Positions 42,995 through 46,128 of a DNA stretch of 64,000 nt are shown piece after piece. Origin of the DNA: Escherichia coli. GTDB taxonomy: Bacteria; Pseudomonadota; Gammaproteobacteria; Enterobacterales; Enterobacteriaceae. The stretch is from the NCBI RefSeq assembly GCF_965641715.1, contig NZ_OZ282453.1. One strand, written 5' to 3'. Positions within the stretch are counted from its first letter, which is position 1; each line of letters starts with the position of its first letter. The position numbers and the translations under genes were made by a program. The notes below the pieces were generated by a model. It saw only the letters and a list, made by a program, of their open reading frames with translations, searched no databases and was not told where the DNA came from.

Positions 42995-43741
42995 TTACTT
43001 CGCAATTCCTGGCTGGACGACATTCGGACGCCAGCTCTCCCAGTTAAAATTCACCCATCGCCCGCCGTTCATGGTCATGCGATCCATAATCCGCTCGCCG
43101 AGCAATGTTTTCATGGCCTCATAGTTCAGGTTTGTCAGCATTCCCACGCTACGCATCGACGCTGTCCGTCGATCAATAATCTGGTGCAGTACCACCTGCT
43201 CGTTTTTCGTCTCGCGCTGAATGCCAATTTCATCAAGAACCAGCAGATCCACTTCGCACAGTTCCCGCAAAAATTTTTCGCCTGACTGCCCGTCGTCATA
43301 GCTGGCGTGGAGGGCACTCATAACATCAGCCACGGTAACCACAATCACTGTCTGACCGTCTTTCAGCAGGCGATTCCCGATAGCTGCTGCTAAGTGGTTC
43401 TTCCCGGTACCAGGTTTTCCGCTAAACGCGAAATTTGTGCATCCGGTAACCAGTTCGTCAGCGATAGATTTCGCCAGACTCAACGCGTATCGCTGGCCGT
43501 CGTTCTGCACCTGGTAATTCGCAAACGAGCATTTACGGTGCAACGGCTGGATGCCTGAGCGATTCAGAATTTTTTCCACCCGCAACTGGCGATTCAGGCG
43601 GTTGATCTCCTCGCTACGTTTCTGGCCTTCAGCAAGTTGCCACTCGCGCCACTCCGCTACCGTTCTGAATGGGGCAGTTACATGTGGTGGGGTCAGTCTG
43701 CGGATACGCTCCAGAACGCCTCCTGTCGCAATATTTTTCAT
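42995..43741 (-). CDS. ydaV: DnaC-like replication protein (helicase loader, AAA+)
   Basis: 248 aa with Walker A GKPGTGKNHLA and Walker B LLVLDEIG; matches Rac YdaV. Confidence 0.9.
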   Translation of the reverse strand: MKNIATGGVLERIRRLTPPHVTAPFRTVAEWREWQLAEGQKRSEEINRLNRQLRVEKILNRSGIQPLHRKCSFANYQVQNDGQRYALSLAKSIADELVTGCTNFAFSGKPGTGKNHLAAAIGNRLLKDGQTVIVVTVADVMSALHASYDDGQSGEKFLRELCEVDLLVLDEIGIQRETKNEQVVLHQIIDRRTASMRSVGMLTNLNYEAMKTLLGERIMDRMTMNGGRWVNFNWESWRPNVVQPGIAK

Positions 43742-43747
43742 GGTCTG

Positions 43748-44536
43748 TTACCCCCTGAAGCCTGGCGGGATCGCACTATCCGGTAACGAAACGGTGTTAA
43801 CCTGTCGGAGTAACGTCTCAGGTCGAACACCTTTCGGCGCGAACAAGCCCTGGTATTCATTAGCAATGCTGTGTCGAATCACCTGCTCAGGTGAAAAACC
43901 CTGCTGGCGGAATTTTTCCAGCTCTCGTATCGCCCCGTTAGCGCCCTGCTCCGTTCGAATCGGTTTTCGCAATGCCTGCCTGAACTGAACCCACTCATGC
44001 CAGAGTGTTTCCGGCAACCAGTCAGGCAGCTCGATAGCCTCCGGCTCGAATTTTTTAGACGCTCGTTTTTGGCGAAGGGGATTTAGGGGGAGATCAGTAT
44101 TTATATCTTCCTCTTCCTCTTCCTCTGGTAACGCTTTTTGATCCGTTTGTGTAACGCTGCCAGCGTTACCTTTTCGTTTCAGTTCGCGTATTTTTGTAAC
44201 TCGCTCGTTTGTAACCGCCCGTTTTTTAGAGCTTTTTCCGTTATGACGTTCAAAGTTAGGTAGAGAAAGCCCACCGTCATTTTCGACCAGCCATCCAACC
44301 TGAATTAACGCATCAGCAAAACCAGCCATAAAAGTGATGCGATCTATTGCACTTTTTGTAACGCCGCGAGCGTTACAATCTGCATTACCGTCTATCATTT
44401 GTTGATCCGCCCATGCCCAGAAGCGAATAACCTTCCCTAATGCGGCATCTGGATCAATATTCAGAATCTCAGCAAGCCTGAATATTTCCGGCTTATCCGG
44501 CGTAATAACTTCGAGCTTTATCCAGTTTGAAGCCAT
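43748..44536 (-). CDS. ydaU: Replication initiation protein YdaU-like (DUF1376)
   Basis: 262 aa MASNWIKLEVITPDKPEIFRLAEILNIDPDAALGKV...; Rac gene order; contains the palindromic repeats listed below. Confidence 0.8.
   Translation of the reverse strand: MASNWIKLEVITPDKPEIFRLAEILNIDPDAALGKVIRFWAWADQQMIDGNADCNARGVTKSAIDRITFMAGFADALIQVGWLVENDGGLSLPNFERHNGKSSKKRAVTNERVTKIRELKRKGNAGSVTQTDQKALPEEEEEEDINTDLPLNPLRQKRASKKFEPEAIELPDWLPETLWHEWVQFRQALRKPIRTEQGANGAIRELEKFRQQGFSPEQVIRHSIANEYQGLFAPKGVRPETLLRQVNTVSLPDSAIPPGFRG
44151..44169. repeat. 19-bp palindrome GTAACGCTGCCAGCGTTAC (copy 1 of 3)
   Basis: Perfect inverted repeat; related copies at 44358 and 44550. Confidence 0.8.
44358..44376. repeat. 19-bp palindrome GTAACGCCGCGAGCGTTAC (copy 2 of 3)
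   Basis: Same half-sites GTAACGC / GCGTTAC. Confidence 0.8.
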
Positions 44537-44549
44537 TTGTTTTCACCTT

Positions 44550-44568
44550 GTAACGCTCGCAGCGTTAC
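44550..44568. repeat. 19-bp palindrome GTAACGCTCGCAGCGTTAC (copy 3 of 3), just upstream of the ydaU start
   Basis: Same half-sites; lies in the ydaT-ydaU intergenic region. Confidence 0.8.
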
Positions 44569-44613
44569 ATTTAACTGATACCGAACAAAACAGTCCGGCA
44601 CGATTAATTTCAA

Positions 44614-45036
44614 TCAATGCACTACAACAGAATCGCCAGGCGACCCGCCGCCGCTGAAATGTGCTTTACGGTAAACGGCCTGGACTGCATCATCATGCGC
44701 ATCAATTGCCGTACTCAACGCTTCCTGCGCCGCCAGTAATGCACGGCGTTCCAGGGTATCGAAGATGCAGAGTCGGTGACGCAGCTCGCGCGGAAGAATT
44801 GCCAGAACCGCAGGGATCAGTGTCTGAATTTTTTCCCTTTGCGCTTTCGTTTCGCCTTTCAACCAGCGGTGATAGATGTTCTGCTGATTGTTCCAGTCCT
44901 TGCCTGGTACCAGCGGCAATTCGCCGCCCCCCTGGCGCAGATATTCTTCAGTAATTGCATTAGCTACCCACGCCTGCCCTTTTTCGGCTGCCAGGGCTAA
45001 CAACACTGATTCGATGTGCTCATGCCTGATTTTCAT
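44614..45036 (-). CDS. ydaT: YdaT-like protein (Rac toxic early protein)
   Basis: 140 aa MKIRHEHIESVLLALAAEKGQAWVANAITEEYLRQ...; length and position match Rac YdaT. Confidence 0.8.
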   Translation of the reverse strand: MKIRHEHIESVLLALAAEKGQAWVANAITEEYLRQGGGELPLVPGKDWNNQQNIYHRWLKGETKAQREKIQTLIPAVLAILPRELRHRLCIFDTLERRALLAAQEALSTAIDAHDDAVQAVYRKAHFSGGGSPGDSVVVH

Positions 45037-45322
45037 GAATCAACTCCTGTGCATTTTGTGTGTTAGCCTTGCATCCAACAGGTAAACCGTCGGTTGGGTT
45101 CGGGTAGATATCAGGCCGGAGTTCATGAGGTGTAACCTCGAAATTCGTAGCCTCTGCGATACGCAATACCTTTTCAGGGCTTAACTGACTACGTCCAGTA
45201 GCAACGAGGCTAATCATTGATTGCGAACAACCAGCCAGCGCGGCCAAACAAGACTGTCGTACACGATTTTTTTTCAAATATTCATCTAATGTCATAAGGG
45301 TCACCTTAGTAATGCTTACCAA
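45020..45322 (-). CDS. ydaS: Cro-like HTH regulator YdaS
   Basis: About 100 aa HTH protein divergent from racR; start may be the internal Met (MTLDEYLKK...). Confidence 0.75.
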   Translation of the reverse strand: MVSITKVTLMTLDEYLKKNRVRQSCLAALAGCSQSMISLVATGRSQLSPEKVLRIAEATNFEVTPHELRPDIYPNPTDGLPVGCKANTQNAQELIHENQA

Positions 45323-45399
45323 AATATTAACTATATTAATTTAAATGATCAACACCTATATCAGTTTGAGATTATGAGCTGTATTCATAAGATGGTGAT
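45323..45399. promoter_or_regulatory. Divergent promoter/operator region between ydaS and racR
   Basis: AT-rich intergenic segment with palindromic elements (ttaactatattaatttaa) between divergent regulator genes. Confidence 0.55.
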
Positions 45400-45864
45400 A
45401 TGAGAAGAAAACGCGAAGAAATCGCATCGCCGGAAGCTACGCAACGTCTGCGCGCAATCTGGGATGCAAAAAAGAGAGAGCTCAAACTGACTCAGGAGCT
45501 TGCTGCCGAGCTAATGGGTTTTGAGGCGCAATCTGCGGTTAGCCATTATCTCAACGGAAAGGCTCCACTTAATACTGATGCGGCATTAAAATTCGCTGTA
45601 TTACTAAGAGTTAAGCCTGAAGAGTTGAGGCCTGATTTAGCTGATCTGATGAATTACGTCCGTTCCTCAGGAACTTATGACGAAAGTTTCGAAGGCGAAG
45701 GTTGGCGGATGGTTAACAAGCAACAGGCTGATTTACTGGACCTTTTTGATATCCTTCCCGAATCAGAAAAAGCAAAACTAATCGAAAGGCTTAAAGGCCA
45801 GAATGAACTCTACAAAGAAGCGTTTGAAAATATGCTGGCAGCTCAAAAACGCATGAAGAAATAG
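45400..45864 (+). CDS. racR: Prophage repressor RacR-like (XRE-family HTH)
   Basis: 154 aa with HTH (LTQELAAELMGFEAQSAVSHYLNGK); divergent from ydaS/ydaT as in Rac. Confidence 0.8.
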   Translation: MRRKREEIASPEATQRLRAIWDAKKRELKLTQELAAELMGFEAQSAVSHYLNGKAPLNTDAALKFAVLLRVKPEELRPDLADLMNYVRSSGTYDESFEGEGWRMVNKQQADLLDLFDILPESEKAKLIERLKGQNELYKEAFENMLAAQKRMKK

Positions 45865-45883
45865 CTCCCACCACCTCGTAACT

Positions 45884-45909
45884 AAACCGCCATTTTTGGC
45901 GGTTTTTTT
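45884..45909 (+). terminator. Rho-independent terminator after racR
   Basis: Hairpin ccgcc-attttt-ggcgg followed by tttttttg. Confidence 0.7.
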
Positions 45910-46128
45910 GTCCCCTCCGCCCGTCCCCGCCTTACTTTTTATCAAAAAAACACTAAAAATTTCATTAGGATAGTACATTTTTATCAACAAAATGCATATT
46001 TGTGTTGATCATTAATATGAACATAACTAATATTATTACAGAAGCAGCACGGCGCTGTAGGTTTTAGTTCCGCCACCCGGCGTTAAAGGGAGAGATAAAA
46101 TGGTGCTTACGAAGTAGTTCAGTATTTG

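Follow-up and report, generated by a model that had tools for sequence, protein, structure and literature searches.

Palindromic half-site arrays as a probable replication origin inside the initiator gene of a Rac-like prophage of Escherichia coli

The replication origin of phage lambda lies in the middle of its initiator gene O, in the stretch that codes for the linker between the protein domains, and consists of four contiguous iterons followed by a purine tract. Initiators of iteron plasmids (Rep proteins of the pPS10, F and pSC101 type) are winged-helix proteins whose iterons stand in direct repeat about one helical turn apart. The basal unwinding unit of bacterial oriC is a DnaA box beside DnaA-trios, a repeat with a period of 3. 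Among prophages, Rac has been reported to have an active origin, oriJ (PMC3945230). Here we analyse a window of 64,000 nucleotides of E. coli DNA (RefSeq assembly GCF_965641715.1, contig NZ_OZ282453.1), in which three perfect palindromes lie in and just upstream of a putative replication initiator gene of a Rac-like prophage. Sequence comparisons indicate that these palindromes are probably sites for the initiator's N-terminal winged-helix domain and form the replication origin of the prophage inside that gene.

The pattern GTAACGCNNNNNGCGTTAC (GTAACGC-N5-GCGTTAC) has exactly three matches in the window, at 44151-44169, 44358-44376 and 44550-44568, and none in 100 dinucleotide-preserving shuffles of it (expected number 0). 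When the pattern is loosened to as many as 3 mismatches, only scattered background matches are gained elsewhere in the window. The three palindromes, about 200 bp apart, had been pointed out in the initial annotation of this DNA, and the exact search of the 64 kb together with the shuffles bears this out. Their description as three equal sites is incomplete: the start-to-start spacing is indeed 207 and 192 bp, but the repeating unit is an array of half-sites, which are about 11.5-12 bp apart in the window and 11-12 bp apart in its relatives. Two of the three palindromes lie inside the open reading frame 43748..44536 (minus strand) and the third lies 5' of its ATG. They stretch beyond 19 bp to 21-23 bp, with arms of 9 bp (TGTAACGCT..AGCGTTACA). 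The sites and their accompanying half-sites, none of which is assigned a strand, are listed here, with gene positions counted from the start of the initiator gene.

44549..44569 (core 44550-44568), no strand: upstream site, TGTAACGCT-cgc-AGCGTTACA, an exact match with 9-bp arms
44356..44378 (core 44358-44376), no strand: inner site, TTGTAACGC-cgcga-GCGTTACAA, gene position +161
44151..44169, no strand: linker site, GTAACGCTG-c-CAGCGTTAC, gene position +368..+386
44128..44134, no strand: distal half-site GTAACGC, gene position +403, 23 bp from the linker site and abutting the purine tract
44382..44388, no strand: degenerate half-site GCATTAC (one mismatch), exactly 12 bp from the inner site

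The inner site is placed within the coding sequence of the N-terminal domain (N-domain), where it codes for CNARGVT, and the linker site in the part of the gene that specifies the inter-domain linker. The upstream site is located in the gap between ydaT and the initiator gene; its nearest edge is 13 bp (its core 14 bp) 5' of the ATG, and it directly abuts the AAGGTG ribosome-binding site on the 5' side. Of the extra half-sites proposed earlier, the one at 44128-44134 stands and proves to be a full 7-mer, GTAACGC, conserved family-wide. The GTAAC 5-mers at 44196 and 44211 were dropped, since they do not exceed the background frequency (GTAAC/GTTAC occurs at 1.77 per kb in the window, with about 0.9 expected there), since their orientation is contrary to the family pattern, and since they flip by synonymous change in close relatives. 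The GCATTAC half-site at 44382-44388 had escaped the initial annotation.

The domains of the encoded protein and the purine tract that follows the linker site are as follows.

43748-44536, minus strand: initiator gene, 262 amino acids, at ydaU's position
44123..44536, minus strand: N-domain of the initiator, amino acids 1-138, a predicted winged helix and then a long basic helix
43748..44122, minus strand: C-terminal domain (C-domain) of the initiator, amino acids 139-262, DnaT-like
44106..44126, minus strand: purine tract AGAGGAAGAGGAAGAGGAAGA, 21 nt of pure purine on the gene strand and of pyrimidines on the plus strand, gene position +411..+431

The 262-amino-acid protein matches PHROG 2509 'replication initiation protein' from end to end; this match, the predicted winged-helix N-domain, the DnaT-like C-domain and a DnaC-like neighbour make it a plausible initiator. 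Its C-terminal 124 amino acids are 81% identical to the C-terminus of K-12 YdaU (BLASTP aligns amino acids 139-262 only) and also match PHROG 6451 'primosomal protein'. Over amino acids 32-124 of the C-domain, phmmer finds the C-terminal domain of DnaT (2ru8, E 4.7e-5; 9zbt, E 1.9e-4), and relatives carry Pfam PF17948. The NCBIfam DnaT model scores 17 bits on the protein, far under its cut-off of 201, and for this reason we regard the initiator as DnaT-like and not as DnaT.

The N-domain, which we propose as the site-recognition domain, has no family in Pfam or NCBIfam and no PDB match by sequence profile. DUF1376 gives no score on the window protein even at E<=1, whereas K-12 YdaU scores 92 bits. 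Profile comparison of the N-domain with the DUF1376 domain of K-12 YdaU shows no similarity (hhalign probability 0.1%), and comparison with amino acids 1-148 of lambda O gives a probability of 0.4%, with no match to Pfam Phage_rep_O. As judged from these searches, the N-domain belongs to an unnamed family, and the initiator is a mosaic of this N-domain and a YdaU/DnaT-like C-domain. The gene had been called ydaU, and this name holds for its position and for its C-terminal 124 amino acids but not for its N-terminal half, which is not DUF1376. The block exchanged relative to K-12 Rac is exactly the N-domain, all three sites and the purine tract. RefSeq labels the initiator 'hypothetical protein' in 744 of 5,426 complete E. 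coli genomes (about 14%), the phage record ON470590 names it 'DNA replication protein O', and relatives elsewhere are named 'primosomal protein I'. The isolated phage vB_EcoS-613R10 has all three sites.

Relatives of the N-domain are found in phages of Escherichia, Klebsiella, Salmonella, Xanthomonas, Xylella, Ralstonia, Pseudomonas, Vibrio and Cobetia, and occur in epsilon15-like, Stx-converting, Xanthomonas, Ralstonia, Pseudomonas and Vibrio phages. Each of the eleven named genomes has palindromes within the part of the gene that codes for the N-domain, and their positions correspond, near +65 or +150 and near +345 to +370. Each scan of IMG/VR confirmed at least about 585-591 relatives; among about 320 loci fetched from this database, 259 regions covering -150..+550 around the gene start are distinct. 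Two or more palindromes sharing a 6-mer arm are present in 201 of the 259, compared with 3 of 251 and 9 of 254 flanking regions and one of 259 codon-shuffled genes. The half-site arms are of at least five types among the N-domains.

TAACGC-N5-GCGTTA (GTAACGC-N5; type A, the type of the window): 108 distinct N-domains
GTCCGC-N7-GCGGAC (type B): 88 distinct N-domains
GTCACG-N7-CGTGAC: 7 distinct N-domains
GTAGACG-N6-CGTCTAC: 4 distinct N-domains
GTCACA-N7-TGTGAC: 2 distinct N-domains

All palindrome copies in one genome have the same arms, and the arms switch together between clades. The nearest N-domain neighbour shares the half-site type in 64 of 68 cases. The type is independent of the host (Pseudomonas phages carry two types, and Ralstonia phages likewise) and tracks neither the C-domain, the loader nor the upstream genes. 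These comparisons indicate that the half-site sequence switches with the N-domain clade, and not with the host or the neighbouring genes.

The positions of the sites are conserved as well. Across site types the linker site falls between +341 and +392, an equivalent of the inner site is found at +148/+160 in 103 distinct type-A N-domains, and the site positions advance among relatives in 12-bp steps (+367, +379, +391). At both the inner and the linker positions the half-sites form converging arrays, with extra left-oriented half-sites 11-12 bp upstream and extra right-oriented half-sites 11-12 and 22-24 bp downstream. The upstream site has no flanking half-sites and is confined to the Rac-like subclade, in which ydaT lies upstream in 24 of 25 cases; relatives keep it at -32 to -43, while its centre varies freely. 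The sites thus exist, they travel and co-vary with the N-domain, and their layout is that of lambda's origin in gene O. Conservation, co-variation and layout together lend strong comparative support to one of the suggestions made in the initial annotation, namely an origin with sites for a dimer inside the initiator gene, as for lambda O.

Several observations show that the sites are under selection as DNA and not as protein. In close relatives the half-sites are invariant while the N5 centre shows more than 10 forms. The codons of the motif xNAxxV[T/S] are frozen: the N codon is AAC in 106 of 106 cases (background 69%) and the V codon is GTT in 105 of 106 (background 34%), and among representatives below 80% identity each is fixed in 30 of 30. 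In type A, both of the frames free of a TAA stop are in use at the linker site: 55 sequences read it as GNAxSVT and 9 as VTxxAL. Upstream of the gene, where the non-coding DNA is otherwise unrelated, nothing but the upstream copy is conserved. The DNA unit can also be seen to lengthen the protein. Window positions 44377-44388 (gene +149 to +160) are a 12-bp, 4-codon insertion relative to phage TL-2011b that contains the GCATTAC half-site and changes the peptide DGNAGSVT of TL-2011b to DGNADCNARGVT; this insertion of the window's clade is a duplicated half-site unit (GGTAATGCAGAT) beside the inner site. A column-wise conservation plot of the close clade was used qualitatively only, because it is blurred by indels.

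The purine tract is also conserved. It is (GAGGAA)3 in the window, coding for an EEEEEE linker, and (AGAGA)n in most relatives, where the peptide 'REEKRRE' is its translation. A half-site that abuts the tract is the rule in types A to D, in which GCGTTACC, GCGGACC, CGTGACC and CGTCTACC each precede AGAGAAG. The longest purine run after the linker site has a median of 21-27 nt in types A-D and of 12 nt in the two type-E cases; in control stretches within these genes it is 5-6 nt. Purine runs of at least 12 nt are present in 67 of 72 representatives below 80% identity, and 17 of the 72 share the identical 23-mer AGAGAAGAGAAGAGAAGAGAAGA in genes with a G+C content of 39 to 66%. The surrounding stretch of the window, 44080-44260, has a G+C content of 35-47% and strong strand asymmetry; a local G+C content of 37-47% goes with an AT skew down to -0.68. 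A Fisher test of AGR versus CGN arginine codons in the tract was discarded as having no evidence value: any arginine codon in a pure purine run has to be AGR, which makes the test circular.

The exact 23-mer is present at no fewer than 120 viral loci in IMG/VR, that is, at least 120. Among 116 listed loci with enough upstream DNA, 82 have this N-domain family and 34 do not. These 34 encode other initiator-like proteins, either DUF1376/YdaU-type, Lin1244_N or unclassified, and have the tract in the linker of those proteins; in each, short repeats of its own come before the tract, at a spacing of about 11-12 bp. Since it is present in unrelated initiators, each with its own adjoining repeats, the tract looks like an origin element, or a module junction, that is shared across initiator families.

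The locus as a whole is the early-right operon of a Rac-like prophage, with the gene order repressor (45400-45864, plus strand), YdaS/Cro-like gene, YdaT/CII-like gene, the gene for the 262-amino-acid protein and the gene for the DnaC-like loader YdaV. The two direct neighbours of the initiator gene are these.

42995..43741, minus strand: ydaV, DnaC-like helicase loader, immediately 3' of the initiator gene; Pfam IstB_IS21 (E 5e-20) and Bac_DnaA ATPase, NCBIfam PRK12377 (2e-152) and DnaC
44614..45036, minus strand: ydaT-like (CII-like) gene, immediately upstream of the initiator gene, given for context only; Pfam YdaT_toxin, PHROG 163

These data suggest the following model. The recognition unit would be the half-site (T)GTAACGC. 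A 19-bp palindrome would be two converging half-sites 12 bp apart, presumably for a head-to-head dimer, and arrays would be lengthened by extra half-sites, presumably for monomers, at intervals of about 11.5-12 bp. The origin core would be the linker array at 44128-44169, whose last half-site stands against the 21-nt purine tract at 44106-44126, and the duplex is proposed to open in the low-GC, strand-asymmetric stretch at the tract. The inner (44358) and upstream (44550) sites may serve as auxiliary anchors for a looped or wrapped initiator complex, and the upstream site may also allow the initiator to throttle its own expression. The DnaT-like C-domain would bring in the host DnaB helicase, together with the DnaC-like YdaV encoded next door. 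We infer the binding by the initiator, the dimer and monomer scheme, the place of unwinding and the origin activity from the sequences.

As in lambda, the proposed origin lies in mid-gene within the stretch coding for the inter-domain linker, and its sites are palindromic and about 18-21 bp long. In lambda O the iterons occupy +349..+433 and the purine tract, ACAAAAGAAAAAAGAAAAGA, +451..+470; in the window, at gene coordinates that are nearly equal, the linker site is at +368..+386 and the tract at +411..+431. Extra iterons in the O gene of Stx phages add 13 residues to the protein (PMC7466680). Added sites likewise add amino acids here, the 12-bp half-site unit of the window being 4 codons, and in both systems exchange moves the N-domain along with its sites, as a single module. 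There are also differences. The N-domain of the window is not Phage_rep_O and has no profile similarity to lambda O, and where lambda has four contiguous iterons, the window has three sites dispersed at intervals of about 200 bp, plus single half-sites. The tract is (GAGGAA)3, whereas that of lambda is an A-rich run, the C-domain is DnaT-like, and a DnaC-like partner takes the place of lambda P.

K-12 Rac is the same type of prophage and has the same gene position (racR-ydaS-ydaT-initiator-ydaV). However, the N-domain of its YdaU (DUF1376) is unrelated to that of the window, its repeats differ in sequence, and it is without the GTAACGC sites and the (GAGGAA)3 tract. The linker region of K-12 ydaU has 4-5 repeats of its own, TGTTCAAACA-like, at about +388 to +469 of the gene, with purine-rich flanks. 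These repeats are likely the counterpart of the window sites, and the region that holds them is a candidate for oriJ. With iteron-plasmid Reps the initiator shares a predicted winged helix, half-sites in direct repeat and an inverted repeat potentially bound by a dimer, and no sequence or specific fold match between the window initiator and these Reps was found; unlike theirs, the window sites are inside coding sequence, and no promoter lies over the inverted repeat. As in the oriC unit, a repeat of short period on one strand, (AGAGA)n or (GAGGAA)3, lies immediately beside a double-strand recognition site, but the region has no DnaA boxes and the repeat period is 5-6 nt, not 3.

Other explanations of the sites have to be weighed against an origin. 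One reading, which we consider unlikely, is that the sites, though bound by the initiator, serve above all in autoregulation, as operators or roadblocks that limit transcription of the initiator gene, and that the true origin is elsewhere or is the linker array alone. In iteron plasmids, Rep dimers bind an inverted repeat and so repress rep. Perfect palindromes suggest dimer binding here too, and the upstream site would suit such a role, lying just 5' of the ribosome-binding site without flanking half-sites and being limited to one subclade with its operon context. However, no promoter-like sequence overlaps any site, a promoter scan of the ydaT-initiator gap was empty, and two of the three sites are deep in coding sequence; moreover, the purine tract that the linker array abuts recurs even in initiator families unrelated to this one, and this speaks for an origin. 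The same sites could serve in both roles. We consider it quite improbable that the palindromes are RNA hairpins in the initiator mRNA, acting on its stability, its translation or its coupling to ydaT. Each site does fold, at -10.9 to -15.4 kcal/mol (z about -3.2 to -3.5 versus shuffles), and the upstream hairpin abuts the ribosome-binding site. Against this, the arm sequence is the same at all copies of a genome and switches jointly between clades, and direct-repeat half-sites at 11-12 bp are not explained by any hairpin. Among 31 one-mismatch variants, the pairing is lost in 24 and a G.U pair in the sense strand is kept in only 2, while the core TAACG persists, and an Rfam scan of 43000-46000 (E<=1) gave no relevant match.

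The initial annotation had also offered operators for the neighbouring regulators, and a role of the sites as targets of YdaT (CII-like), YdaS (Cro-like) or the repressor now seems highly improbable, although ydaT stands next to 24 of the 25 upstream sites. Intragenic sites are present in 73 type-A and 80 type-B distinct loci without YdaT and YdaS, so that more than 150 distinct relatives have the sites with neither gene nearby, and the half-sites of the upstream copy are the same as the intragenic ones. The published YdaT site, TTGATT-N6-AATCAA (PMC9986795), differs in sequence from the three palindromes, and the YdaT footprints mapped in Rac are at other places, namely PydaST and the start of ydaT (PMC11879457). 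A near-match to the YdaT site, CTGATTTTCATGAATCAA (one mismatch), spans the ydaT start codon at 45026-45043, in agreement with the footprint reported near the start of ydaT in K-12 Rac, and another with 2 mismatches lies at the ydaT stop, at 44600-44617. Least probable of all are a host protein as the binding partner of the sites, a coding by-product of the peptide motif NAxxVT, and chance. The inner site does coincide with a conserved protein motif. However, the host-independent switching of site type disfavours a host factor, and codon choice that is frozen far past the peptide's need, together with a linker site kept in two frames and one copy that is non-coding, disfavours a coding by-product; for chance, the expectation is 0 in the window and one in 259 among codon-shuffled genes.

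Some findings weigh against an origin at this place. A spacing of about 200 bp between sites is unusual in a lambdoid origin, the window tract is only moderately AT-rich, less so than that of lambda, and neither a DnaA-box nor an IHF consensus is present in 43700-44700. The residues that distinguish type A from type B are mostly in amino acids 9-59 and not clearly in the predicted recognition helix. Autoregulation could be primary for some of the sites, and the searched literature holds no experimental binding or origin assay for this initiator family. The literature on YdaU/DUF1376, oriJ, the epsilon15 origin and DnaT-like initiators yielded no description of this origin. An origin within the initiator gene nevertheless remains, in our assessment, the probable function of the sites.

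A further reading, which we offer only tentatively, is that the tract is a distinct, portable motif for single-strand loading or unwinding, similar to the DnaA-trios and common to several unrelated initiator families, and that the half-site arrays are a previously undescribed origin architecture. The DnaT-like C-domain or a host factor may then recognise the tract. So far the tract has been read only as a charged 'REEKRRE/EEEEEE' protein linker, and no paper describing the purine tract was found in the literature searched on the initiator family and the tract strings.

Additional features were observed near these elements. After the purine tract, at 44073-44092, there is a C-run motif, CCCCCTAAATCCCC, that codes for a PPLNP-type peptide; other relatives have CCCCCT-N9-AGGGGG, and several a GC-rich inverted repeat. 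On the plus strand at 44151-44178, the linker palindrome followed by CTTTTCGTTT scores as terminator-like, antisense to the initiator. This antisense site at 44151 is the only terminator-like one in the region, a count within the shuffle range. A gene for a C-5 cytosine DNA methyltransferase overlaps the initiator start in Vibrio phage 1.211.A and epsilon15, and the half-sites contain CG.

The comparative evidence thus favours a probable lambda-style intragenic origin in which the recognition domain is unrelated to that of lambda, the converging half-site arrays are dispersed and the purine tract is conserved. It amounts to a concrete proposal for the origin and the recognition code of a widespread, unstudied family of phage and prophage initiators, and the five naturally switched half-site types, paired with N-domain clades, are a data set on how specificity is encoded. 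The locus would also be a case of a DNA element that dictates protein sequence, with the NAxxVT motif, the 4-codon insertion and the REEKRRE/EEEEEE linker as translated origin elements. Should unwinding or loading prove to be a shared function of the purine tract, the logic of a box plus a short-period repeat, as in bacterial origins, would reach phages, and if true, this architecture of portable tract and arrays would exist in about 14% of complete E. coli genomes.

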